The position numbers were made by a program, and so were the translations under genes. Positions 1 through 38,537 of a stretch of 64,000 nt of DNA are shown piece by piece (the stretch's first letter is position 1; each line of letters starts with the position of its first letter). Under the pieces are notes generated by a model. It had not been told where the DNA came from. It saw nothing but the letters and a program-made list of their open reading frames with translations, and ran no database searches. This DNA comes from a virus, in IMG/VR virus record IMGVR_UViG_3300032177_000002, positions 39,084-103,083 of that record. One strand, given 5' to 3'.

Positions 1-123
1 CCCAAGTTTTAGATTAGCTGCAGAAGCTTTTAACTTCTGGAACATACCTTCAGCTTTACCCATTGATGCTATTGCTGCCGAAGAATCAAACCTTAGTACC
101 GCTGATAATGAAAGGTCGGCCAT
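1..123 (-). CDS. Tail tape measure protein, N-terminus (runs off window)
   Basis: Manual translation MADLSLSAVLRFDSSAAIASMGKAEGMFQKLKASAANLKLG; lies directly after tube and chaperone genes. Confidence 0.7.
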   Translation of the reverse strand, partial: MADLSLSAVLRFDSSAAIASMGKAEGMFQKLKASAANLKLG

Positions 124-126
124 TAC

Positions 127-318
127 TTATTTCCTACGCGCCTGTTTGGCGTCTTCCTTATATTGCTTCCCCAGCCGTTTAATAAACCACGCACGCTCTT
201 TCGGTGTCATTTCGAGTATATCCGAAAACGAGAATCCATGGCCATACCACATAAGCAAATGGATCTCCTCCTTCAACGTTTCAGCGCAACCAACGGAACT
301 GAAGAATCGAAGAAAGGG
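127..318 (-). other. -1 frameshift extension of tail assembly chaperone; slippery heptamer CCCTTTC at 318-312
   Basis: In-frame C-CCT-TTC (X XXY YYZ) near chaperone end; -1 frame open to TAA at 127 (..LKEEIHLLMWYGHGFSFSDILEMTPKERAWFIKRLGKQYKEDAKQARRK). Confidence 0.75.
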
Positions 319-1106
319 TCAAAAGCCCAATTTAACGCGTCCTTAATCTGTACGCCACAATCAGCTTTAGGGCAATCTATGGATGTTCGCATATCAGGTC
401 CTGCTGACACGATTGCCGCCTGTCTATCTATTCGCAGCATATCCATCTTCCCGATATCATCTATCTCAGAGTCTTTGATAATATACCCAGGTGGAGTGCC
501 ATCTACTTCGGAGACAGACTCCCGCAATTGAGCGTAAGAAAGCCCACCTGTGCTAGAACCACCGGATCCCGCTGCAAACATAGCCTGGTATTTAACTGGT
601 TGTAGCTTTAACTTCTTGCAGGTTTTGCCGTTCTCTAACTTAAAACCATCTTTTAAATCAACCCAAGTTGATAGCTCATCCACTTTCTCAACTACTTTAA
701 CCTCAGTAGTCCATAAGTCAGCTTTTGAAATACCTTTAGTTCCACACCTCTGGCACCGATATGGTACCTCTATCATCTCAGATACATTTAGGATTCTTGA
801 ATACAGATACACATAAAGCACATCCGCAAAATACCAGTTATAAATTTTAAACTCAGAGTCAGCCGTGGAATCCCCAGACTCGGCTAATGGATATGATACA
901 CCACCTGCGCTTTCTACAATAAGTGATAAGAACTTGGCGGCTAGATGCGCCATAGTCCTTCCCTCATTTGCTTCCCTATAGATATTTAGGAACCTATCTA
1001 CTTTGCTTTTGTAAGGACGTAGAACGAATGATTTGTCAAGCTTCCCATCTTTAAGCACTCCTACAGGAAGTTGCATCCCCAATTCTCTTACAATAGTTTT
1101 TCGCAT
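273..1106 (-). CDS. Tail assembly chaperone / baseplate-hub assembly-like protein (CxxC motifs)
   Basis: Between tube and tape measure; CQRC and CPKADC motifs; ATG at 1106 preferred to TTG at 1121. Confidence 0.65.
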   Translation of the reverse strand: MRKTIVRELGMQLPVGVLKDGKLDKSFVLRPYKSKVDRFLNIYREANEGRTMAHLAAKFLSLIVESAGGVSYPLAESGDSTADSEFKIYNWYFADVLYVYLYSRILNVSEMIEVPYRCQRCGTKGISKADLWTTEVKVVEKVDELSTWVDLKDGFKLENGKTCKKLKLQPVKYQAMFAAGSGGSSTGGLSYAQLRESVSEVDGTPPGYIIKDSEIDDIGKMDMLRIDRQAAIVSAGPDMRTSIDCPKADCGVQIKDALNWAFDPFFDSSVPLVALKR

Positions 1107-1174
1107 TATTATACCTTCCAATTATGCCGTCTAAGGCACTTGTGAAGAATGTGGCGGGTCCACGTACTGAAGTA

Positions 1175-1627
1175 CTATCCTGGCACCATATAAAAAGAAT
1201 CAGCTTTCATCGTCCAGGTTATAATTGCCATATCACCGTCGTTATCCAAATCTAAATCAGACTGGCTTCGTTTGCTAAGCCACAAATTATATAACATGAA
1301 CTTTTGACTACGCCCAGGATATTCGTTTAGTATAAGCAACGTTCCAATTTTTAAGTAAAGTGGCAGAGTGTTCACACATTGCTGCCACCAACCCTCCATT
1401 GCAACAACTTCTATTACATGATGCATAGGTTGATCTACTTCGAATTCAACTTGTTTTTCTCTTCCCCCACTTCTAGTTGTTCTATCAGGAAGGTCAACTG
1501 TATCCAATTCCATTTCCAATCCGCTAATACGTGTAAATAACGGTTTTGGAAATGCCAGTGGTACAATCATCAATTCAAACTTATTTACTTGAACCCTGTT
1601 ACTTTGTAGTACACCTTTAATAGACAT
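1175..1627 (-). CDS. Tail tube protein (gp19-like)
   Basis: 150 aa immediately downstream of sheath; ISGLEMELD..., YNLWLSK...SDLD tube-like motifs. Confidence 0.8.
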   Translation of the reverse strand: MSIKGVLQSNRVQVNKFELMIVPLAFPKPLFTRISGLEMELDTVDLPDRTTRSGGREKQVEFEVDQPMHHVIEVVAMEGWWQQCVNTLPLYLKIGTLLILNEYPGRSQKFMLYNLWLSKRSQSDLDLDNDGDMAIITWTMKADSFYMVPG

Positions 1628-1639
1628 TGGTTACTCCTT

Positions 1640-3991
1640 CTATGCAGCCGCCGAAGCTTCAAAAATACCCATTTTTCCAATCGTGATAATAAATCGTTCT
1701 ACCGTATCAGCTAACCGCAAACTTATTTCTACGTTCAAGTCACCTTCTTCCCGCGTTGCATCCGTATTATTTTCATCATCCAACTTTATCTTACACGCGT
1801 CGTCAAATGTTGTCCCTCTAAGCGCACGCTTTTTCCATTCTGCCATAAAAAATGATTGCAATGTAGCTATCAACATCGGTTGCTCTGACGGGTCATTTAT
1901 AGCGAATATCACCCAGTCAAAACTTTCCTGAAGGACATGCTCATAATAGCTCATTAGTTCCCTATGCTGACAGAACTTCCATGCGCTATCCTGAGATGGT
2001 AACCTAGCCCCCCAGATCACAAAGTTCCCTTGTTTCCGCTCAATACGTTGTAGTCCAGCCGGATTAAGTACTTCCCCATTCAATCTAGTATCCCTAGTAG
2101 GGATCTCTATGATCTTAGGCAATGTAGTATAAATACCAGCAGCTACTTTATGATATCCATTATAATCCTTGGCCGTCTTCGACTCCCTACCATGCACCAT
2201 CCCCATTACGGGTACTAATTTTAGCAGCCCTTCTTTTGTTGGGTCTGCTACAGTAGCGTAACTTGGGAAAATTACCTTTTCATAGTTACTTCGTCCCAGA
2301 GTATCGGTGACATAGGCTTTTGCCACAAACTCATCAGTAACAGTGTCCTGAATCTCAACCCTAAACTGATGGTTCTTATCATCAGCATACGCAACTCCAG
2401 CCTTCTGGACCACGGTTGCATCCACTGCCCCACCATACCTCCACACTCCAGGTACACCGAACTTAATTAAGCCGTAAGCCTGATCCTGCGTCTTATTAAA
2501 TGGGGACGTTCCAGAATCAAATACATCAGTAAAATCCGCTGAATCTAACTTGTAGATCCCATCATACCCTCCACTCAGTGTTTGCCGGTACTGCAGCCGT
2601 ACCTTTATGCCTCCTGCTAAAGTTCCACCACAAGTAAGATCCCCACTACCTATGCTTACTTGCGTTTCAGCGTTGTCTGACATCGAGAACCCGCCCTTAG
2701 GGGCTACACTTACGTCCGGTAAAATAATCTTCCCGTTAATTGCCTCATCTGCAACCAATGGCAACACATAGATTGTAAACTTTTCACCAACTACCGGGGT
2801 CACACCGCTTACCGTAAATCCTATTGAATATACATTGTCAGCCACGTAAGCTACGGCATTTGTAGGAATAGCAAACGTATGACTAGTTTGCTTATTAACA
2901 GAAGATAATTTCCAAACTGCGGGAGGACCGGCACTAGTTACTTCCAACACATACGTATCCGGGATTACTTTCGACCCAAAAGTAAATGCGGTAAGCGTAT
3001 TGTCACTCGCCAACGAGGCATCTACTTTTACACATGCTGTGCTCAGTGTAGCCACGCTAGAAGTTATTGCTGTATGGGCAACTACACCAAACCAGTTAGC
3101 GGGTCGTACATCCGCAGTTGCAGCACCCGACCACAAATCCGTCACTACGATGTAATAATTACTTGTGTCTTTGTTAATTACTCCTACGTAATAGTTAGCT
3201 GCTGATGGATCAGATGATAGGTCTGGGTATATTTTCACCAAGGAATCATCTACATATACTTTTAATCCCCATTCGGTGCTTGGTTTAAGTTGACCATCCA
3301 TTACCTCTACCGCCAGCTTCTTTTCACGCCCCCACTCATCCGTATTTTCCAGCACTAGGATAACTTCTTTATCCGTGGATACCCCAAAATCTGTTAGTGC
3401 CTTGCTGTCTGCCGCCAATGTGATTTCGCATCTTGCACTTACGGTTCCTTCTGTGTTCGACACGATACTGTAAGTCTTGGATGCCCCTGTTAGAGTTAAT
3501 TGGCTACCCTTCCATTTGTTTTTCGGTACGAGGAACCCTGTTGGTAGCGTTATTACTGTGTTTGTAATGTCAGTAGGAACAGCTGTAAGATCTACAACTA
3601 CAGTATCCTTCTTTCCTCCCCATTTCCCCACATTATTAGCATCCACCTTAACTACTTTGTTACGCGGTGTTTTCCTATCCCACAAAGTCAAAGTTGATGC
3701 AACACCCGATCCGTCGTCTAGCCTATCCAAGAATAGAACACCTGCTCCATTACCGTGATCCCAAAAATCCTGGCAGACATCAGGCAGCAATGAATCAGGC
3801 GTCAAACCACCTGTTTTTGTAAACAAATCCTTTTTTCCAGACGTGATAATCAAATCGCCAACTTTACCGCGTTCTAGTACGCCCACGTAAGCTGTCGATC
3901 CAAGTATGTGCGCCTGAATAGTTTTATCCGCATCCTTCTCGATAATGACCGTTCCTGCATCCAGGGTCGGTCCAAAACGCTTCTGAGACAT
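1640..3991 (-). CDS. Contractile tail sheath protein
   Basis: C-terminal LNPAG..IWGAR..WVIFAIND..ALRG..KLDDENNT..ERFIITI sheath motifs; large beta-rich insertion. Confidence 0.93.
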   Translation of the reverse strand: MSQKRFGPTLDAGTVIIEKDADKTIQAHILGSTAYVGVLERGKVGDLIITSGKKDLFTKTGGLTPDSLLPDVCQDFWDHGNGAGVLFLDRLDDGSGVASTLTLWDRKTPRNKVVKVDANNVGKWGGKKDTVVVDLTAVPTDITNTVITLPTGFLVPKNKWKGSQLTLTGASKTYSIVSNTEGTVSARCEITLAADSKALTDFGVSTDKEVILVLENTDEWGREKKLAVEVMDGQLKPSTEWGLKVYVDDSLVKIYPDLSSDPSAANYYVGVINKDTSNYYIVVTDLWSGAATADVRPANWFGVVAHTAITSSVATLSTACVKVDASLASDNTLTAFTFGSKVIPDTYVLEVTSAGPPAVWKLSSVNKQTSHTFAIPTNAVAYVADNVYSIGFTVSGVTPVVGEKFTIYVLPLVADEAINGKIILPDVSVAPKGGFSMSDNAETQVSIGSGDLTCGGTLAGGIKVRLQYRQTLSGGYDGIYKLDSADFTDVFDSGTSPFNKTQDQAYGLIKFGVPGVWRYGGAVDATVVQKAGVAYADDKNHQFRVEIQDTVTDEFVAKAYVTDTLGRSNYEKVIFPSYATVADPTKEGLLKLVPVMGMVHGRESKTAKDYNGYHKVAAGIYTTLPKIIEIPTRDTRLNGEVLNPAGLQRIERKQGNFVIWGARLPSQDSAWKFCQHRELMSYYEHVLQESFDWVIFAINDPSEQPMLIATLQSFFMAEWKKRALRGTTFDDACKIKLDDENNTDATREEGDLNVEISLRLADTVERFIITIGKMGIFEASAAA

Positions 3992-4020
3992 ATTTATTCT
4001 CCTCTTTTACGGGTTACCTG

Positions 4021-5277
4021 TTATTCGGCCCATAGCGGCCCGCCCCTGTTGCTTTGGCCTATAGCAAGGTTAATTCGCTCAATCAAATGATAATGATCTT
4101 CAGGTAATAACCAGAAATACACATTATCTAATCGTATATTCAACGACGATTCATGCCTATCATTCATGTTTGGTCTGGGAGAGAATGCCATCGGGGATAC
4201 CAGCCTCATAGAAATGTATTGGCAAAGATCTCTCCATAACAACATAGGCGTATTTGCTATATAATGTAATGCCTTATCCATCATGGATAACAAAGTCCTG
4301 TTATTGCCTGCTAACAATACTACATTAAACTGTAGTGTAAGTCTAAACGGCAACTTACGCACGGTAGCCGTGTTATCCGTAATATTTTTTATTTCCTGAT
4401 AAGCCACGTTCTGCACGCTTCGCACGCTTATAGTATCTATAACTATGGATGGTATCCTCTCCACTTCTATATAATCTTGTGATCCCCAGTTTATGTAAAT
4501 TTCTGGTTCTATAGTGAAGTGAATCCATAACGAAGTGCCTCGGGCCACGTCTACCTTAAGTTTTAAATCACGTGCGGTTAGATCCACGGTATCCAGCATA
4601 TTATTCAAATGAAGAGGATCAATCTTATGGTTATACACTCCATCTACAGATACTATCCTAAACATAGTCTCTAAATCAGACAAGCTTACATTGTATCCAC
4701 CAGGCGCGTCTAAAGCAAAATCAATTTGGGATCTTAAGTTATCTTTTAATGATGTTCCAACACTATCAGCTATAAGTGAATATAAATATTCAATATCGCA
4801 GTCCATAAGTAAATCTATATTACTAAGATACGGTGTATAAGCAGAATCAGAAGTTGCTAAATTTACCACCACCGCTATAGCCCTACTTCCCGCAGGAAAA
4901 GTTGCTATATGATCATTCATTTCAGATACTGTATTCCAATTAGACGTTCCAGCAGTTGCCCAAACAGTTCCGTTCCAATACTTGTTAGTTGTTCCGTCAT
5001 TCAATTTGAATTTTACAGAAGTACCATCTGGTTGTATTAACGGATCTGCACAAAAGTTTAGCCAACCCCTTACTGCCTGCGGTGTTGCAACCCACGTTTT
5101 AACCCATAGGTCTACATCCGTCGGGTATACAAGCTCATTTGTTACGTAATCCCTGCTCTGCGCGATTAACTCGATCCTGTTCGTTGATGGATTCAATCGT
5201 ACTTTTGTATTGTCGCTAAATGTTAATCTGCTTCTGTTACTTTCTTCGAATACGAATGGGTAAACAAGTTTCTGCAT
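4021..5277 (-). CDS. Tail completion/terminator-like structural protein
   Basis: Upstream of sheath; start at 5277 overlaps previous stop (TAATG). Confidence 0.5.
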   Translation of the reverse strand: MQKLVYPFVFEESNRSRLTFSDNTKVRLNPSTNRIELIAQSRDYVTNELVYPTDVDLWVKTWVATPQAVRGWLNFCADPLIQPDGTSVKFKLNDGTTNKYWNGTVWATAGTSNWNTVSEMNDHIATFPAGSRAIAVVVNLATSDSAYTPYLSNIDLLMDCDIEYLYSLIADSVGTSLKDNLRSQIDFALDAPGGYNVSLSDLETMFRIVSVDGVYNHKIDPLHLNNMLDTVDLTARDLKLKVDVARGTSLWIHFTIEPEIYINWGSQDYIEVERIPSIVIDTISVRSVQNVAYQEIKNITDNTATVRKLPFRLTLQFNVVLLAGNNRTLLSMMDKALHYIANTPMLLWRDLCQYISMRLVSPMAFSPRPNMNDRHESSLNIRLDNVYFWLLPEDHYHLIERINLAIGQSNRGGPLWAE

Positions 5278-5822
5278 TATTTTCCCCCACGCAATGCGGA
5301 TAGTACTGCCGCTTCCCAATTCTTCCTATATTCTAGCTGCATATTATGCGTTAATGCGGATTCCATAAATGGCCTAGGTGGTATTACTATAACAGTCGTT
5401 GTTTTCTTAAGCGGTTTAACTTTAGGGTTCTTGCTAGCTAGCCAGTGAAAATACCTACGCATCTTATCTGTAACAGGTACCTTTGCGCCGAAATGCAAAA
5501 TAACAGCTATATTTCGCGTGTGAGGCCCTTTTCTAAGTACTCCTATTTCTCCTACATTCCATGCTAACGTCCTGCCTATAAGAGACCCGACTAGTGCCCC
5601 AGTATCAACAAGTGGCCTGCTACTTCCTTTAATTGCGACAGTTAGCCACGAATTTTTAAGGAATTTGTTGCTGTAAATATCCTTTTTTACCTGATCCGCA
5701 CCAGAAATAACATTTAGACCTGTTGCTTTTTTTACATGATATCTAAGTCTGCGCTTAAAATTCTTTTTTGAAAGAAGTTCCTCTAACTTGTCAAATCCTG
5801 TTATTTCTAAATCAATTTTCAT
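5277..5822 (-). CDS. Neck/tail-completion (virion morphogenesis) protein
   Basis: PLVDTGAL and IPPRPFM motifs. Confidence 0.75.
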   Translation of the reverse strand: MKIDLEITGFDKLEELLSKKNFKRRLRYHVKKATGLNVISGADQVKKDIYSNKFLKNSWLTVAIKGSSRPLVDTGALVGSLIGRTLAWNVGEIGVLRKGPHTRNIAVILHFGAKVPVTDKMRRYFHWLASKNPKVKPLKKTTTVIVIPPRPFMESALTHNMQLEYRKNWEAAVLSALRGGK

Positions 5823-6239
5823 TTACCGTTGCCTGGATGGGCTTCGATCAGCAAAGTAAGACCTTACTAAAGTTGGGCCTCGCTGATCAGGGTAATGCCC
5901 CATCCACCTAAATGAAACTATATATAAATCAACATCCAGCGCGACTACTCCCTCTCCTATTTTTATTATCCTATCACCTATGTTTAACGTCACATGCGCT
6001 ACTGCTAAGTCAGAAGTCAAAAATAATAGATATCCATCAGACGATGCTTCTACTGTCATATCGGACGACTGCTGCGTCCTGTCTAACCCCCATTGTACCT
6101 GCGCCCGAAGCTTTATCGACGTCTCTCTTCTTACTTGTCCTACTGGCTCATGAAGAATAGGATCCATTACTGCCGTATTTACCTTATCAGACTTACGAAG
6201 GTAAACAGGTATTGGATGAATAAGTGTAGGTATCGGCAT
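5823..6239 (-). CDS. Head closure / head-tail adaptor
   Basis: 138 aa; D.ILHEP and GDRI motifs; position in neck cluster. Confidence 0.6.
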   Translation of the reverse strand: MPIPTLIHPIPVYLRKSDKVNTAVMDPILHEPVGQVRRETSIKLRAQVQWGLDRTQQSSDMTVEASSDGYLLFLTSDLAVAHVTLNIGDRIIKIGEGVVALDVDLYIVSFRWMGHYPDQRGPTLVRSYFADRSPSRQR

Positions 6240-6242
6240 TCA

Positions 6243-6977
6243 TCACCAAGCAGAAACGTACATCGGATAATAAGTCTCTGGCATTAAATCTAATGCTGTT
6301 ATTCCTTGCGGTGAATCAACTATCCATGGTCTCCTGTAAATACCCAGTACATCCATTATTCTTCTAGGTACCATCTCGTATGCTGACTGCGATGATGCGC
6401 TGTAATCATACTCCATAGAATGCCCGTCCGTAGTCTCCTTGCTCACGTGCCCATACTTGCTAGACGACTCAAAGTAACTATCCAAATCTAAACAAACCAA
6501 CTCGATAATAGCAGCCTTAATAGGTACCGGAGTAATATAGGTTCCAGGCGTAAGACCATCATCCACGAATCCCCATTTTGCTGTAATATACTGGTTTAAC
6601 CCGTTCGCAAATACTCCTGGGATTGTCCTAAAAATTGCAGAAGTACCAGTAGGAGTAAGCATAATTTTTGGGTTACGCCTATCATCCTGCATCGGTGTCC
6701 TGCCAGTATATGCCGTAAATTCCGTGCTTGCTAACGGGGCATCTTGCGAATTAGTTCGCACGGAAGAAACCTCTATTAAGGGCAAATTGAAATGCATTAT
6801 CCTAGAATTATTACCGTTAAATACAAGTTCTCCAGGCTCCATAACACGAAACACGTTTCCGGTTATTTGCTCAACTATTTTCTCCCATTTAGCTATCCTG
6901 GCTTCTATCCTAACAGCAGAGGCTGACGCTGGTGCGCCTTCAGCTTTTATATCTGCTATAGTGGCATAATTACCCAT
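6243..6977 (-). CDS. Head-tail connector (head completion) protein
   Basis: YATIADIK N-terminus; P.PIKAAIIEL; KETTDGHS..Y; VLGIYRR. Confidence 0.75.
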   Translation of the reverse strand: MGNYATIADIKAEGAPASASAVRIEARIAKWEKIVEQITGNVFRVMEPGELVFNGNNSRIMHFNLPLIEVSSVRTNSQDAPLASTEFTAYTGRTPMQDDRRNPKIMLTPTGTSAIFRTIPGVFANGLNQYITAKWGFVDDGLTPGTYITPVPIKAAIIELVCLDLDSYFESSSKYGHVSKETTDGHSMEYDYSASSQSAYEMVPRRIMDVLGIYRRPWIVDSPQGITALDLMPETYYPMYVSAW

Positions 6978-6980
6978 CTG

Positions 6981-7397
6981 TTATGTCCTACCTGCCCCCG
7001 GTACTCCCGGCATGGTTTCTGCACCGGCGATAAAAATCTCCACCTGTGTCGGGTTATTTGCAACCGTATTTATGCGAAGGAATAAAAAGGCTCCATTTAC
7101 GGTCGCGTCGAATGCGTCACCACTAGATAACGCAGCAGTATTAGCTCCTGCAACAGCTAAATGCTGCCCACTGTCGTACTTCAAAAGTTCAAGTGGCTGA
7201 AGAACTATTGTAGGAGAAGCTCCACCTGTTAGTTTAACAAACCCTTTAACAGTCTTGTATCCAGCACAATCCACGGTACTTCTAGGATTGCTTGCTAGCA
7301 GAACTACCAAATCGGTAGCATCAGCCGCTACCGGTGCCCCATAAATACCTCTATGAATTATATAAAACGGCTTACTTTTTAATTGCGCGTTGTTCAT
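6981..7397 (-). CDS. Putative virion structural protein
   Basis: Beta-rich 138-aa ORF in structural operon. Confidence 0.5.
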   Translation of the reverse strand: MNNAQLKSKPFYIIHRGIYGAPVAADATDLVVLLASNPRSTVDCAGYKTVKGFVKLTGGASPTIVLQPLELLKYDSGQHLAVAGANTAALSSGDAFDATVNGAFLFLRINTVANNPTQVEIFIAGAETMPGVPGAGRT

Positions 7398-7407
7398 TCA
7401 TTTTCTC

Positions 7408-7812
7408 CTACGTTGTTGCCCTGGTTATGTTCGGCAAGAATTCTATAATGCCCCAAGCCACAGTTATTATTTTTGTCTCACCATCCATCAACGCTTTTAC
7501 CTGCAAATCATAACCCCATTGCCCCTCCAAATCCGATGTTTTATCTTTTGTAAATTTTACTACGAACTCACCGTAAGTCGCATTCGTGATCTCGATCTCG
7601 GTTGGTACTGCACTACTTAGCTGCAATTTTGCTTCCGCATCCGTCTTTATTGATACCTCCTTTATCGTCATCCAAATCTTACTGCCGGTTAGGTTTAACG
7701 GTGCATCTCCGATAGTAACATAGAACTTGTAATAGTAGTCATCACCAGCATGAAGTGTTCTGTAACTCAAAGATCTTAAGTACTCTGCAGTAATATCCAG
7801 TTCGTTACTCAC
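7408..7812 (-). CDS. BppU-like Ig-fold virion protein
   Basis: GD...PLNLTG..IWMTIK...T..L.G.WGYDLQV pattern. Confidence 0.6.
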   Translation of the reverse strand: MSNELDITAEYLRSLSYRTLHAGDDYYYKFYVTIGDAPLNLTGSKIWMTIKEVSIKTDAEAKLQLSSAVPTEIEITNATYGEFVVKFTKDKTSDLEGQWGYDLQVKALMDGETKIITVAWGIIEFLPNITRATT

Positions 7813-8045
7813 GACAGTATCCTTCCAGTGTATTTTTTGACATCTATTGCTACTTCTGCATCCCTACCCATACTTATCGATGTTTCCCCATCTATACCTA
7901 ACATCAAAGCAGCATACGCGTCACTAGGTACTTCCATAATCCAAAGTGGCTGAGAACCTTCGTCCCCTATAGACATAAATTTCGGGCGTCTACCAGATAA
8001 ATGGATCCCTTGTGATGATCTATCACCGTATACTGCTATGAACAT
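7809..8045 (-). CDS. Hypothetical protein
   Basis: Tightly packed 78-aa ORF. Confidence 0.5.
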   Translation of the reverse strand: MFIAVYGDRSSQGIHLSGRRPKFMSIGDEGSQPLWIMEVPSDAYAALMLGIDGETSISMGRDAEVAIDVKKYTGRILS

Positions 8046-8048
8046 CTT

Positions 8049-8732
8049 TTATCCAACAGTGAATATGCCCTTACCACTTGATATTATACCAACCCCAGTA
8101 ACTGTGACCTGTGATATAGAATAATACGACTTATTAGTTACTAAAACTGTAGCTTTTTCTATTTTACAGAATCCATTAGTGTCTGGTGATAAATCAGATA
8201 TCTCAAATAATTGAACTCCTGCGTCAGAATACCATGTTACAGAAACCGAAACCGGAGTCCTAAGTAAAGTGTTACCGTATTCTATCCATACTAGACCAGT
8301 TAATAAGCCATTAAATGTATCGTAGCTATACGACTGCATAACGGTATATGATCCACTTCCAATCTTGTCTACCCATTGCCCTACTCTAATTTCACCAGCT
8401 TGTGGAACATTAGATGCCCCATTTACGCCATCCTGCAAAACAATTACTTGGTACGCGTCATTACCTTCTGCGTTTACTATAGTAGATGTATCAAAATCTA
8501 ATCTATACTCGCCCGGAGAGTACGTCGGGTTCACCTCACCCATCATTTTTAAAAGTGCTCCTACGTTAGCCGGCTCTTTAAATTCCATATCATTCCAGTC
8601 AAGGTACTTTCCGTCAGATATTCTCCATATTTTAGCCTTTATGTTCGTTCTATACGTCAACGGCTGGCCAAATTGATCCAGCAGCATTGCTACTATCGGC
8701 TCTGTGCTTCCTGTTTCAATACGTTCACTCAT
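8049..8732 (-). CDS. Structural protein, short paralogue of 12724-14772
   Basis: Shares C-terminal domain YTVxQSYSY..GLVWxE..GKGIFTVG. Confidence 0.65.
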   Translation of the reverse strand: MSERIETGSTEPIVAMLLDQFGQPLTYRTNIKAKIWRISDGKYLDWNDMEFKEPANVGALLKMMGEVNPTYSPGEYRLDFDTSTIVNAEGNDAYQVIVLQDGVNGASNVPQAGEIRVGQWVDKIGSGSYTVMQSYSYDTFNGLLTGLVWIEYGNTLLRTPVSVSVTWYSDAGVQLFEISDLSPDTNGFCKIEKATVLVTNKSYYSISQVTVTGVGIISSGKGIFTVG

Positions 8733-8848
8733 TGATACTAATTCACTTTTATCTGAAAAGTAATGGCTGCGTAAGAATTATATATAAATTGCGGTATAGT
8801 CACTGTATTCACTAATCTCCACCTAAAAATCTACTTTTTATAGCCGTA

Positions 8849-26736: not shown

Positions 26737-27044
26737 TTTTTAGACTTTTTTTCCCCCTTTAATTTACTCACAGTTTTTGTTTTCTCTTCTACCTTTTGTT
26801 TTTTGGTTCGTGTCTTTTCAGGCCCGTACTTTGCTTTAGTTCCTGTATTATTCAGTTTAGTCACGCATTGCGCATGCGCACGCAAATTTGTTCCACCGTC
26901 AAGGTATACTTCCCCACTAATAATTGGCTTTTCACAAATTCGGCACATCTCATTCTTTTGAACCCTACACGTCCTGGCCTTATACGTACCCCACTTTATG
27001 TTCTTAGTATCCAATGCTGTTCGCATATTGTCCCTTTCCTGCAT
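26733..27044 (-). CDS. Zn-binding basic protein
   Basis: CRIC...I..GE.Y...HAQC. Confidence 0.55.
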   Translation of the reverse strand: MQERDNMRTALDTKNIKWGTYKARTCRVQKNEMCRICEKPIISGEVYLDGGTNLRAHAQCVTKLNNTGTKAKYGPEKTRTKKQKVEEKTKTVSKLKGEKKSKK

Positions 27045-32850: not shown

Positions 32851-33090
32851 CTACTTTAACTCTAAGTGTGCTACATGAGCTACATAGTATGGAGCATATT
32901 GCAAGAAATCATTATATGCATAACTAAGCATCAAAACCAAAAAGTCTCCTGCCTTTAGTCCTCTCACAACATACTCATCAAACGGAACTATCGGCTTCGG
33001 ATCCAAGTGTTCCCAATCCATCACCGTAGCCTCTGGGTAACAGTTGAAGCAACTTTTAAATCTTACTTTGTCACCTGGCCTAAGTACCAT
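32851..33090 (-). CDS. SH3/KOW-like small protein, paralogue 1
   Basis: LRPGDKVRF..ATVMDW..L.P.P..PYY. Confidence 0.7.
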   Translation of the reverse strand: MVLRPGDKVRFKSCFNCYPEATVMDWEHLDPKPIVPFDEYVVRGLKAGDFLVLMLSYAYNDFLQYAPYYVAHVAHLELK

Positions 33091-33495
33091 CTTTCTACTT
33101 CTCCTTTGTCGCAACATAGCCCATTTTAGTTTCCATAAATGCCTCCTTAATAATGCTAAGAATTCTTTCTAAACGTTCATACAGCACCGTGGAATCCTCA
33201 TCATACTTAAACCCTTGCAATACCTCCTGTAGCTTCTTCAGTATCTCTGCATCTGTTTTCATACTACTGCTCCTGTTCGTTTATTGCCGTCTAAAAGTTA
33301 CTCGCTAACCATTGTAATCTGCATTCATAAGACAACTTATTTTTAAATTCTAGCAATTTCTCAAACTAATCTTCACTTATGCAACCGTAAACCTCATCTA
33401 AACTATTTTCTGTTAATACCTCAACCAATATTAGAACACCAAAAAACATAACTAAAAAAGCGTTAATGATCCTTTTTATTACTTCGGTTTCTTTG

Positions 33496-34032
33496 TCACC
33501 CGTTGGTTTCATGCTCATATATCCTTTCGCAACGCTGCGTACGTACCATGTAGTATGGGTCCAAATACCATACTTGATCCCTAACACGGTATGAATAATT
33601 ATCATCCACAAGTACTAGCGTATACTCACCACTCTCCAACCGGTCTTCTGCCGTTTCATCGAATACGCACTTCATAGGTATTTCCAAATTCTGCCAATCC
33701 GCCACCGTACCCGTTACTGGTACGATAAAAAATCCACGTGGAACAAATGATACCCTATCACCAGGCTTAAACCCTCTATCTATATTCACGCTCAACTCCT
33801 TTGGATACACGCCATTCTTCTCTTCTTTTATTACATTGATTACCATAGGAGCACACTCATCATATAAGATACTTTTAAATTCCTGCAACTGCTTATACTC
33901 CTCTCTGGTTACCTCATCTTCCACTTCCTCTAGTATGTTCTCTGATAGTACATCCTCCCATATTGGCAGATCCCAATACGTTACAAATATTTTAGCAATC
34001 CTATATTCTGCTTCTACAATTTTACTTGCCAT
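33496..34032 (-). CDS. Two-domain protein with C-terminal SH3/KOW-like paralogue 2
   Basis: FKPGDRVSF..GTVADW..L..VLVD..PYY; GAGG SD before ATG 34032. Confidence 0.7.
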   Translation of the reverse strand: MASKIVEAEYRIAKIFVTYWDLPIWEDVLSENILEEVEDEVTREEYKQLQEFKSILYDECAPMVINVIKEEKNGVYPKELSVNIDRGFKPGDRVSFVPRGFFIVPVTGTVADWQNLEIPMKCVFDETAEDRLESGEYTLVLVDDNYSYRVRDQVWYLDPYYMVRTQRCERIYEHETNG

Positions 34033-34043
34033 TACCTCACCTG

Positions 34044-34286
34044 TTATCGTAGTTCCAAAAGCCACGTGTATGCCAAGTAGTATGGACTGTATTTCCATTT
34101 GGGGTTATCGTGATTATCTATCAACACAACCGTGCATTCCCCGCTCTTTAAGTCTGCTATTACGTCTTCAGCAAACGGCACTACCGGAGGTGGGCTCAGC
34201 TTCCCCCAATCCATCACAGTAGCATTCGAGCTATATGCCTCAAAACACGATATAAATCTGACTCTATCTCCCGGTTTAAAGTTCAT
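34044..34286 (-). CDS. SH3/KOW-like small protein, paralogue 3
   Basis: MNFKPGDRVRF..ATVMDW..SPYY; GGAG SD before ATG 34286. Confidence 0.7.
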   Translation of the reverse strand: MNFKPGDRVRFISCFEAYSSNATVMDWGKLSPPPVVPFAEDVIADLKSGECTVVLIDNHDNPKWKYSPYYLAYTWLLELR

Positions 34287-34546
34287 TCTTCTTCTCCCGT
34301 TACCCTGAATTCCTGGCCAACCGAAAACCGAGGTTGAAGCTGCGGTCCGCCGGGGCGACGTGGTCGCGGTAAGTCGCACGCAGGTTCCTCGCATTGCTGA
34401 GCCAGGACCCGCCGCGACACGCCTTATACACTCTTGATACGGGGCCTATAGGGTCTATTACCTTCCCTTCTGGGTAATCTCCATACCAATCCGAGCACCA
34501 CTCCCACACGTTCCCATGCATTTGGTATAAACCCCATCCGTTTGGC
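34284..34546 (-). repeat. Copy A of ~260-bp near-identical 3' segment containing DGR-like variable repeat (~34310-34422)
   Basis: Matches 35978-36240 (offset 1694); mismatches clustered in the VR. Confidence 0.9.
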
Positions 34547-35019
34547 GGAAACTTCTTAACCTCTACCAGTTCTATTCCACCATAATTAGCTTGCTCTTTT
34601 GATATCACATCCCCAAATGAATACGCGGTCGTAGTTCCTGCTCTGCAGGCATATTCCCACTCGGCTTCTGTAGGGAGCCTCAATCCCATTCCTGCCCTCT
34701 TCAAAAACTCCTTGCAGTCCTCAAATGACACGCTGTCCACGGGCTTATCATTCCCTTCAAATCGTGATGGGTTATTACCTATCACCGCCTCCCATAATTC
34801 TTGTGTGCAAACGGTATCCGCTAACCAAAACGCTTTCGTGAGCTCTACTTCGTGCTGTATTTCGTCCTGGTAACGTCCTGGTTCCTGGCTTGGAGAGCCC
34901 ATCGTAAACGTTCCTGCAGGAATAAAACGGAATCGTTGGACCACCCCATTAAAAGCTAGTTCCGTCCATATCCCATACTCGTCCGTCCCCACGTTTGGCC
35001 ATTCTACGGTTGCTTTCAT
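34300..35019 (-). CDS. FGE-sulfatase (CLec-fold) protein, DGR-type target A
   Basis: IPAGTF.MGS, LRLPTEAEWEYACRAG, GLYQMHGNVWEW, RGGSW...GFRLAR. Confidence 0.92.
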   Translation of the reverse strand: MKATVEWPNVGTDEYGIWTELAFNGVVQRFRFIPAGTFTMGSPSQEPGRYQDEIQHEVELTKAFWLADTVCTQELWEAVIGNNPSRFEGNDKPVDSVSFEDCKEFLKRAGMGLRLPTEAEWEYACRAGTTTAYSFGDVISKEQANYGGIELVEVKKFPPNGWGLYQMHGNVWEWCSDWYGDYPEGKVIDPIGPVSRVYKACRGGSWLSNARNLRATYRDHVAPADRSFNLGFRLARNSG

Positions 35020-35035
35020 GTCTCATCTCCTATTT

Positions 35036-35266
35036 TTATTGCATCAATCCGCAATGCTTCGCCCATACTAAAAAATAGGGGCTATGAATCCACATGGAAT
35101 TCTCCCAGTCATCCAGCAATACGACCAATAATCGGTCATTATCTGCTGTTATTGGTTTTGCCGGTAATGGATCTAAATTATTCCGGTCCATTACGGTTCC
35201 TGTTCCTCTACAGCCTTTGAAGAGATCTAAAGATATTATTATCCTATCCCCTGGTTTAAAGTTCAT
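35036..35266 (-). CDS. SH3/KOW-like small protein, paralogue 4
   Basis: MNFKPGDRII..GTVMD..LDP.P..SPYF. Confidence 0.7.
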   Translation of the reverse strand: MNFKPGDRIIISLDLFKGCRGTGTVMDRNNLDPLPAKPITADNDRLLVVLLDDWENSMWIHSPYFLVWAKHCGLMQ

Positions 35267-35332
35267 CGGGTTCTCCTTGCTTAATTTACAGGTATGTATA
35301 TTGTCATTTTTGGTTTTCTCTAAGATCAGTAT

Positions 35333-35980
35333 TTATACCGGAATTCCCATCCAAACACTACCTAAACTAGAACTATCCCTCATAATACCTATCTTAGAGC
35401 TCCCCACCATGGTCTCTATCTTAGAATTATCCCACATAATCCTTATCTCAGAATTCTCCTCCATAATCCCTATACAAGAACTCCCATACATGGTCCACAC
35501 TGTAGAATTCCATTCTATAGTCCCTATACTCGAATTCCTTCTCATAACCTTTACGATGGAGTTCCCTCGTAGAAATGTTATCTTAGAATTTCCTAGCATA
35601 TATTGAATTCTACAATTCTTAACCTCTCCAATTTCAGCTCCATCAAGAAGGATGAAACATCCATTTTGAAGGGTTTCTCGTTTATCTTGGACAAACATAT
35701 CGGAGATAATAGTCCATAATTTATTTGTTACTATTTCCTCGTTGAACCAGCTCGGAATAGAAGATTCATCAACATCCAATCTCCAATTATTTATATCGTT
35801 TAAATTCTTATTAAAGTCTGTAGGAGTAAACTCGACTCTACAAAATTTTTCTAAATAGAACCCCTTCTCATCGTCTGTTAAATTACATTTTTTTAGTAGT
35901 TCCTCATGTCGATCAGGATATCCGGGATCCCAAATAACATCTAAATTTTTTAACACAATAGCACTCAGAAAGTTACACAT
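35333..35980 (-). CDS. Beta-solenoid protein with 9-aa repeats
   Basis: Start MCNFLS at 35980; repeats (N/S)SxIxxMxx about eight times at C-terminus. Confidence 0.7.
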   Translation of the reverse strand: MCNFLSAIVLKNLDVIWDPGYPDRHEELLKKCNLTDDEKGFYLEKFCRVEFTPTDFNKNLNDINNWRLDVDESSIPSWFNEEIVTNKLWTIISDMFVQDKRETLQNGCFILLDGAEIGEVKNCRIQYMLGNSKITFLRGNSIVKVMRRNSSIGTIEWNSTVWTMYGSSCIGIMEENSEIRIMWDNSKIETMVGSSKIGIMRDSSSLGSVWMGIPV

Positions 35981-36240
35981 TCTTCTTCTCCCGTTACCCT
36001 GAATTCCTGGCCAACCGAAAACCGAGGTAGTTGTAGCGGGCCGCCGGGGCGAAGCTGTCGCGGTACGCCGCACGCAGGATCCTCGCATAGTCGCCCCAGG
36101 ACCCGCCGCGACACACCTTATACACTCTTGATACGGGGCCTATAGGGTCTATTACCTTCCCTTCTGGGTAATCTCCATACCAATCCGAGCACCACTCCCA
36201 CACGTTCCCATGCATTTGGTATAACCCCCATCCGTTTGGC
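35978..36240 (-). repeat. Copy B of 3' segment containing DGR-like variable repeat (~36004-36116)
   Basis: Matches 34284-34546. Confidence 0.9.
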
Positions 36241-36713
36241 TGGAACGCCTTAACTTCCACCGTTTTGGTTCCACCGTAGTTAGCTTGCTTTTTGGATATC
36301 GTACCCCCAAACGAATAAGCGGGTTGAGTCCCTGCTCGACAAGCGTATTCCCACTCCGCTTCCGTAGGGAGCCTCAACCCCGTCCCTACCGTTTCTAAAA
36401 ATACTTGGCAATCTTCAAACGCTACACTGTCTACAGGTTTATTTTTTCCTATAAATCGTGATGGATTATTCCCCATCACTGCTTCCCATAGTTCTTGGGT
36501 GCATACGGTATCCGCTAACCAAAACGCCTTCGTTAGTTCCACTTCGTGCTGTATTTCGTCTTCATAATAGCCCGGCTCATCTTTTGGCGAACCCATCAAA
36601 AATGTTCCTGCAGGGATACAACGGAACCGTTGGATCACCCTATTTATAGCTATATCTATCCAATTCCCGTATCTATCCGTCCCTGTGTTCAACCCTTTTA
36701 TGATCTCTTTCAT
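35994..36713 (-). CDS. FGE-sulfatase (CLec-fold) protein, DGR-type target B
   Basis: Same motifs and same length (239 aa) as target A. Confidence 0.92.
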   Translation of the reverse strand: MKEIIKGLNTGTDRYGNWIDIAINRVIQRFRCIPAGTFLMGSPKDEPGYYEDEIQHEVELTKAFWLADTVCTQELWEAVMGNNPSRFIGKNKPVDSVAFEDCQVFLETVGTGLRLPTEAEWEYACRAGTQPAYSFGGTISKKQANYGGTKTVEVKAFQPNGWGLYQMHGNVWEWCSDWYGDYPEGKVIDPIGPVSRVYKVCRGGSWGDYARILRAAYRDSFAPAARYNYLGFRLARNSG

Positions 36714-37834: not shown

Positions 37835-37940
37835 TACCTACCCAAAAATGTTCGTTAGGGTTACGTAGCACGATTTCTAGATTCGTATGCACTATTCTTA
37901 CTTATCCCTTATCCTCTTTATATTCCTGCAATGTAATAAT

Positions 37941-38094
37941 GTTCGGGTTAGTGTTCGTCCTCGGGTTAGGGTTCGGGTTCGTCCTCGGGTTAGGGTTCGT
38001 TCTCGGGTTAGGGTTCGTTCTCGGGTTAGGGTTCGGATTAGTTCTAGGGTTAGGGCTAGGGTTCGGGGTAGGGTTCGGGTTCGTGTTCGGGGTA
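37941..38094 (+). repeat. Telomere-like hexamer tract (TTAGGG/TTCGGG variants)
   Basis: Five exact TTAGGG plus TTCGGG, CTAGGG, GTAGGG, CTCGGG in hexamer register. Confidence 0.85.
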
Positions 38095-38537
38095 GTAGAT
38101 ATACGGTATTAAAGTTCTTTTGTATACACCTTTAGACTTTTCTCCATATTGTAGTAAATGTACAAAAACCTATAATAGCTTTGAATTGAATTGAATTGAA
38201 TTAAGGGTTCGGTCTCCCGTCTCTTGTTCTTGTGAGTTTTCTTTTAGTTTTATTTTATGTTTGGTAGGTTGAGCCAGGATCGGCTTTTGTTTTTGATTGA
38301 TTTGAACATCTTTTTATTTTGTTGGTGGTTGTTGTTTAGTGTTGGTTATTCGGTACTCGTTTGAAGATCAGGCTGGCGATATTGAATCGTGTATCTGTTC
38401 CTGTGCATATTTGAATAGTTGGCGTGGGATTGTTTTTTTGAGGGGCAAGTAGGTTACTCCTCGTTCGAGTAACCTGTCGGTATCTGGTCCAGCGACAGCA
38501 GGTAATCGGTTAGGATCATCTGCATCACACTAGCGAG

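Follow-up and report, generated by a model that had tools for sequence, protein, structure and literature searches.

In the Bordetella phage BPP-1, the tip of a phage gene is diversified at the adenines of a template, and codons of the AAY type avoid stops. The whole cassette of this diversity-generating retroelement (DGR), with the variable region (VR) of mtd, avd, the template repeat (TR) and brt, lies in cis beside the tail-fiber gene, together with an initiation of mutagenic homing (IMH) sequence and a cruciform. In Treponema denticola, one template serves several targets, and the DGR variable protein TvpA (Protein Data Bank [PDB] entry 2Y3C; PMC4891356), a bacterial surface lipoprotein with its DGR in the same genome, has a C-type lectin (CLec) fold of the formylglycine-generating enzyme (FGE) type and its VR at a C-terminal RGGSW...GFR; target genes also persist there in genomes without a reverse transcriptase (RT) or TR. 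Cellular DGRs with remote FGE targets have been described in cyanobacteria and other multicellular bacteria (PMC7517822, PMC10907252, PMC7159879). Their targets lie on replicons of the same cell, and in the cyanobacterial ones these are tandem, small stand-alone FGE proteins served by a machinery that naturally reaches distant targets. A further point of comparison comes from the Microcystis phages Ma-LMM01 and MaMV (Fukuivirus), RT-less myoviruses with FGE genes (the gp062-type "kinase" genes). Here we describe two paralogous phage genes, A and B, which very probably encode variable proteins written by a DGR. They are found in a window (the whole stretch of DNA analyzed, 64,000 nucleotides [nt]) that covers bases 39084 to 103083 of the 103,083-bp virus record IMGVR_UViG_3300032177_000002; the coordinates of the listed features are those of the window.

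The locus shares some traits with each of these systems. A and B have the fold of TvpA and the same C-terminal position of the variable tract, their variable codons follow the AAY-type design seen in BPP-1, the inferred template layout is that of the cellular DGRs with remote FGE targets, and the combination of FGE genes with an RT-less myovirus is that of Ma-LMM01 and MaMV. The differences are equally clear. Unlike TvpA, A and B belong to a virulent-looking 103-kb myovirus, and no genome of this phage lineage is known to hold a template. Unlike in BPP-1, no RT, Avd or TR was found in the phage, nor a recognizable hairpin. The gene bodies of the cellular targets are only 39 to 44% identical to the phage proteins. 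Finally, a candidate template is known for Ma-LMM01 and MaMV, whose proteins are about 40% identical to A and B, whereas none is known for this phage.

Two small proteins of the TvpA fold outside the tail module

The genes and the tracts compared below are the following.

34300..35019, minus strand: gene A, a 239-aa stand-alone variable protein of FGE/CLec fold (TvpA-like); open reading frame (ORF), Pfam PF03781, E 8e-41
35994..36713, minus strand: gene B, a 239-aa paralogue of A; ORF, Pfam PF03781, E 3e-41
34312..34422, minus strand: variable region of A (coding sequence [CDS] 598-708, codon 200 through RGGSW...GFRLAR), with core sites at 34335-34401 and one site at 34421
36006..36116, minus strand: variable region of B (CDS 598-708), with core sites at 36029-36095 and one site at 36115
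34284..34530, minus strand: block of A identical to 35978-36224 except for the variable sites, from CDS 490 to 16 nt past the stop, with the Shine-Dalgarno sequence and the next ATG inside (repeat family D2)
35978..36224, minus strand: matching block of B found by DNA alignment (247-nt repeat, family D2)

The proteins are 77% identical in amino acid sequence, and each contains one FGE-sulfatase domain (PF03781, E about 1e-41). The best PDB match of A was TvpA (2Y3C; HMMER E 1e-28), and the AlphaFold2 model of A (mean pLDDT 89.9) had TvpA as its top Foldseek fold (TM 0.83, E 1e-19), so that sequence and structure prediction agree on the C-type-lectin/FGE-type fold of a DGR variable protein. When A was aligned by HMMER to the FGE structure 6muj, the catalytic segment LCHDSYCNRY faced L---SNARNL, with gaps or non-cysteine residues in place of the cysteines. 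The variable segments of A and B contain no cysteine at all, and the copper-binding catalytic pair of FGE is thus missing. Since the segment that holds this pair in FGE aligns with the cysteine-free variable segment, A and B are predicted to be binders rather than enzymes.

Neither protein has an N-terminal hydrophobic stretch, a lipobox, a signal peptide or a fiber or anchor domain, and each consists of the FGE domain plus about 30 aa. Both genes are placed among small ORFs of unknown function between the replication genes (44 to 62 kb) and the gene for TerL (24.5 to 25.9 kb). The sheath and fiber genes are located elsewhere, which leaves A and B outside the tail module; neither the position nor the domain fusion of a receptor-binding or tail-fiber DGR target was found. 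The location outside the tail and the lack of a signal peptide had already been proposed from the letters of the stretch alone (the original prediction), and both hold.

Variation of the gene ends is confined to a tract of template length

Over CDS nt 1 to 489, A and B differ at 117 positions (76% identity), 66 of them at codon position 3, and 49 of the 91 changed codons are synonymous, as in ordinary divergence. From CDS nt 490 to 720 and for 16 nt past the stop the two genes are identical except for 18 sites in 12 codons, none of them synonymous. These sites are distributed over codon positions 1, 2 and 3 as 9, 8 and 1, with one at CDS 599 and the other 17 in CDS 619 to 685, and they are flanked by complete identity over 109 nt upstream and 51 nt downstream (0 changes in 160 nt). 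A third C or T is retained in 10 of the 12 variable codons and 17 of the 18 changes fall at positions 1 and 2, which is the pattern of codons designed as AAY. The same tract stands out by composition: CDS 598 to 708 has a GC content of 0.68 to 0.69 and a third-position GC content (GC3) of 0.84 to 0.86, compared to 0.46 to 0.49 and 0.45 to 0.53 in the remainder of the gene, forming a sharp island of about 110 nt, the length of a TR. The original prediction had listed the near-identical 3' ends with their 18 amino-acid-changing sites (17 at codon positions 1 and 2), ten codon pairs keeping the third C or T and a segment of about 68% GC in a genome of about 40% GC. The DNA alignment agrees with the first of these (the identical 247-nt block), the codon pairs are correct, and the genome value is 0.41.

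Two further properties point to adenines in the ancestral template. One of the two copies has an A at 13 of the 18 variable sites, compared to an expectation of 40% from local composition (p=0.006). In addition, the amino acids K, E, Q, M and W are absent from the core variable codons (11 in each of A, B and a relative described below, P0002; 33 residues in total; P=7e-5), as expected if each codon descends from AAY through changes at positions 1 and 2.

Relatives of the tips and timing of the changes

Among 5.8 billion proteins we found two close relatives, P0002 and P0121. With A, P0002 shares 79% identity and the C-terminal end. P0121 follows B almost exactly (about 99% identity) as far as about residue 185, and its 3' end differs from about aa 186. 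Even with its different flank, P0121 has a tip of the same layout, and in the four tips (from at least two assemblies) the same codons vary, in line with the comparison of related VRs that had been proposed as a check. P0121 suggests that the end of B was overwritten by that of A. The perfect identity of the flank compared to 76% farther upstream most likely reflects a very recent gene conversion, and it follows that the 18 tip differences either arose later or survived it. All of the adenines in the upstream flank of 109 nt, about 30 in number, are unchanged between A and B, and therefore this flank is not template derived. As read from these sequences, diversification is repeated and recent, with at least four independent tip versions in a small phage group.

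Variable sites coincide with the adenines of real templates

The template inferred from the data of A, B and P0002 would have the layout W-NNN-A-R-N-(L/M)-R-A-x-Y-R-NNNN-P-A-N-(R/S)-NNN-(L/I)-G-F-R. When used as a BLAST query against 72,556 plasmids, it matched only five, all of them cyanobacterial, and no phage record. The two matches that we examined, on Acaryochloris marina pREC1 and Anabaena sp. 90 pANA02, are true TRs adjoining annotated RT and Avd genes, with tandem small FGE targets at both loci. Both TRs can be aligned with the tips of the phage genes codon by codon, and of the 17 variable sites in the core, 15 lie on their adenines (Fisher p=5e-7 and 2e-6, respectively). They are homologous to the phage template but were rejected as cognate, with differences at 18 to 27 of 67 constant positions. 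The suggestion that A and B are CLec targets of DGR type is thus borne out by the TvpA match in sequence and fold and by the position of the sites on homologous TR adenines. The template proposed originally (TGG AAC AAC AAT GCG AGG AAC...) proved essentially right, P0002 suggesting about six further adenine positions.

One GC-rich metagenome contig (Ga0335395_10008156, positions 1 to 6573; locus L096) encodes a MoxR ATPase and FGE targets of 895 and 259 aa and has a template-like repeat at about 1700 to 1830. Of the 67 constant positions of the phage backbone, 55 are matched by this repeat. It has too many mismatches at positions other than adenines, and we discarded it as the cognate template.

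The closed phage genome lacks a DGR cassette

The phage genome is circularly closed, with an exact 64-nt terminal repeat or overlap, no N and a GC content of 40.8%. Matches to PHROGs (tail sheath, portal, TerL, a family-A-like DNA polymerase and a UvsX-like recombinase) indicate a myovirus-type phage, for which the TerL comparison gave no close cultured relative (identity below 30%). When all six frames of the complete 103,083-bp sequence were searched for PF00078 (RVT_1), no RT candidate appeared at an E value of ≤10, with control genomes positive, and a PF05635 search of the whole genome found no Avd. A blastn-short search with both VRs over both strands of the whole genome returned only the two VRs themselves, whereas in a canonical locus that also has an RT (L013), used as control, it detects the TR 190 nt after the VR. 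None of the three parts of a complete cassette (RT, TR and Avd in the same genome) was therefore found in the phage. The statement that neither copy is the template and that no RT or Avd is present, made for the window, extends to the entire genome, which thus has no TR and RT in cis.

Homologues of A and B occur frequently in viral contigs. We examined 43 viral records with homologues and found a bona fide RT in just one; the five with a completeness of at least 91% are all without it. An RT is also missing from the closest viral contigs that bear FGE genes. Neither RT nor FGE genes occur in the relatives of the phage identified through TerL. Two of these are complete genomes (TerL 64% and 55% identical), which makes A and B accessory in this lineage. 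In a comparison of VRs with TRs, no cognate TR was found in any of the collections scanned. We also observed a complete phage genome without RT (IMG/VR record of 121,016 bp with terminal repeats) in which about ten FGE/CLec paralogues stand in tandem (L021:4545-11389).

A precedent in Microcystis phages

The only cultured phages with homologues of A and B are the Microcystis phages Ma-LMM01, MaMV and Mic1, with two to four copies in the Ma-LMM01 and MaMV isolates. No RT was detected in the four Ma-LMM01/MaMV genomes searched. Ma-LMM01 gp062 and its MaMV orthologue differ at 22 of 87 nt in the tip, compared to 17 of 243 in the flank. The tip of gp062 (6620 to 6770) matches a TR at 26811 to 26923 of plasmid p1FD4 of Microcystis aeruginosa FD4, directly adjoining an RT gene. 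Over 113 nt there are 21 mismatches, 18 of which fall at TR adenines; for the MaMV-CH01 tip, 16 of 23 mismatches with the same TR are at template adenines. Judging by these alignments, at least one cultured phage without an RT has a tip that is cognate to a DGR of its host species.

Clues to the host

CarB of the phage (genome positions 4100 to 7315, outside the window) is 72 to 74% identical to CarB of metagenome-assembled genomes (MAGs) of Thermoanaerobaculales and other Acidobacteriota. All named matches at 67 to 74% identity belong to Acidobacteriota, and identity drops to about 60% lower in the list. At genome positions 7500 to 8800, also outside the window, there is a 1.2-kb patch of 60 to 67% GC with fragments of defense-type genes. 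The CarB match and this patch make a GC-rich host plausible, probably a Thermoanaerobaculia-like bacterium. The patch itself could not be used to assign the host: its ATPase fragment is 87 to 88% identical in amino acids (82 to 85% in nucleotides) to genes of MAGs of Binatia, Planctomycetota and deltaproteobacteria, and these three phyla match equally (82 to 85% nt), leaving no single donor. The TR pattern, with three mismatches allowed, was absent from the three genomes matching the patch. Most homologues in low-GC phages show the same GC3-rich tip, which makes the GC-rich variable tract a trait of the family and weakens its value as proof of a GC-rich donor. Of the original suggestion that a GC-rich host DGR acts in trans, the host remains plausible from CarB, the composition of the tract is weak as evidence, and the cognate template did not appear in the collections scanned.

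Origin of the variable tips

The reading with the best support is that a DGR outside the phage wrote the tips in trans, and we give it about an even chance. A and B would be small soluble binding proteins of TvpA-like C-type-lectin/FGE fold in which the C-terminal ~37 codons form a variable ligand-binding face, and adenine-specific mutagenic retrohoming from one DGR template would have written both tips. Given that the phage has no template, RT or Avd, the cDNA would most likely come from a DGR on another replicon of the infected cell, which may be the chromosome or a plasmid of the host or else some co-resident element. PMC5758913, citing Guo et al., describes a plasmid-supplied avd-TR-brt diversifying a target elsewhere in the cell. 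The sequences show the fold, the footprint of mutation, the lack of DGR machinery in a closed genome and a diversification that postdates or outlasted the recent homogenization of the gene ends. We infer that homing in trans reaches the DNA of the phage, as well as who the donor is and what the proteins do, with the Microcystis phage/plasmid pair as a precedent for action in trans.

Several results weigh against writing in trans. We built IUPAC patterns with N at each position that might be a template adenine (a 22-nt anchor and two long patterns); as exact patterns none of the three had a match in the IMG/VR viral contigs. One pattern gave two matches in JGI metagenomes, both non-cognate, one being L096 and the other (L095) another VR, and had no match in one genome per GTDB species. 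With the inferred TR as BLAST query, all matches were to cyanobacterial plasmids whose templates are not cognate, and phage records gave none. Over a stretch of 116 nt across the end of the VR, no hairpin or cruciform was better than those of shuffled sequences (z of -0.19 and +1.25); hairpins after the VR are not universal among DGRs, and an IMH can be defined only with its TR. Many RT-less phage homologues have tips identical across samples, that is, frozen, and the variability of the tips is known from assembled sequences rather than from reads. Finally, a sister phage may have a DGR in cis (P0121 and P0002, encoded on contigs of 4,896 and 1,771 bp, respectively, are known as proteins).

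Part of this evidence would suit tips that are now static, left behind when the lineage very recently lost an RT-Avd-TR cassette of its own that had diversified both genes. Treponema denticola isolates keep such orphan targets, without RT or TR, as remnants (PMC4891356), for many RT-less phage FGE genes the same tip sequence occurs in several independent contigs, and the cognate TR was found nowhere. We nevertheless consider this unlikely: the loss would have to postdate the homogenization, after which the 160 nt of flanks show 0 changes, remnants of an RT or Avd were not found anywhere in the genome, the two complete relatives are without RT and without FGE genes, and an RT in 1 of 43 viral records with homologues (0 of 5 at ≥91% completeness) indicates that cis DGRs are not the norm for this gene family in phages. 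The gene ends do show clear conversion in their identical 247-nt block, the B-like P0121 has a different 3' end, and foreign GC-rich DNA was taken up elsewhere in the phage genome. All three would fit an entry of the tips by homologous recombination or gene conversion, without retrohoming, after diversification in host targets or in alleles of a co-infecting phage. We find this quite unlikely, because a tract of ~110 nt with phage-like composition directly on both sides would demand crossovers within a few bases of its ends, twice per gene, and a donor gene of more than 58% identity is absent from the 5.8 billion proteins, in near-length, short or longer forms. A recent cellular donor of A and B was rejected on the same grounds: no protein of near or greater length exceeds 58% identity.

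Explanations without any retroelement fare worse. CLec binding loops evolve fast in general, and paralogues in other phages differ throughout, indels included, as they might if point mutation and strong diversifying selection had acted on the binding loops of conversion-homogenized paralogues. Such a process would hardly be expected to produce 18 nonsynonymous changes next to 0 synonymous or flanking ones, variable sites that coincide with the adenines of real DGR templates, residues limited to the NNY set and a tract of foreign codon composition, and we take it to be very improbable. The record was assembled from a metagenome and has a 247-nt repeat in it, and population variants of a single hypervariable gene end could in principle have been stitched onto two loci. 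This is scarcely credible, as the loci differ in their 5' parts and downstream genes, proteins identical to A and B are on record and the B-like relative is independent; moreover, even stitching would leave an RT-less phage with variants of DGR-type diversity.

If the tips are written in trans, the phage might retain the recognition sequences of a host or plasmid DGR so that retrohoming during infection supplies a standing library of binders, and the effector-less copies might act as decoys or blockers of DGR-diversified anti-phage sensors; we put this forward tentatively. A decoy role is conceivable, as speculation, because cellular relatives of the FGE domains have been proposed as sensors in anti-phage conflict systems (PMC10907252, PMC7159879), and the closest cellular relatives include FGE proteins fused to TIR and kinase domains. 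The lack of a hydrophobic stretch and of a fiber or anchor domain, as well as the position outside the tail module, are compatible with a soluble intracellular binder, although the proteins may also be associated with the particle. The role put forward in the original prediction, an intracellular binder for anti-defense or host takeover, is based on gene position and on the missing N-terminal hydrophobic stretch and would be one possibility.

Neighboring genes and repeats

Each of the two genes is followed on the same strand by a small ORF that starts 13 nt after its stop.

34044..34283, minus strand: 79-aa ORF starting 13 nt after the stop of A; no Pfam or PHROG match
35333..35977, minus strand: 214-aa ORF starting 13 nt after the stop of B; no Pfam or PHROG match, not an RT or Avd

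The 79-aa ORF belongs to a family of four small paralogues, the others being at 35036 to 35266, at 32851 to 33117 and at the C terminus of 33496 to 34098. The members of this family (window positions 32851 to 35266) have KPGDR...VMDW-type motifs in common, are interleaved with A and B and have no Pfam or PHROG match. Two repeat families were also found in the window. A run of TTAGGG/TTCGGG-like hexamers (family D1, 37925 to 38104) gave weak matches to low-complexity stretches of Nodularia and Pseudomonas phages. A 90-nt repeat (family D3) occurs in four copies upstream of genes between 39256 and 42736, starting with TGATCAGATAGTAGC and ending at an ATG-proximal T-rich sequence.

Significance for phages and for DGR surveys

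Surveys of DGRs start from the RT, and remote targets are not visible to them, as noted by Roux et al. 2021 (PMC8144416). It follows that targets on a genome other than that of the mutator would be invisible to such surveys. In a full-text literature search we found no published description of phage genes written from a host template, and Wu et al. 2018 discussed only the reverse case. The locus of A and B is an unusually clean internal clock, with identical flanks, differences only at template adenines, a closed genome without DGR machinery and nonstructural genes. If phages routinely borrow host DGRs, the number of DGR targets is being undercounted, matching of TRs and VRs could link phages to their hosts, and a bacterial "adaptive" mutator could serve a virus. 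The idea of action across genomes is directly testable in the culturable Microcystis/Ma-LMM01 system. If the decoy role were true as well, hypermutation in bacteria would be coupled across genomes to a viral countermeasure.

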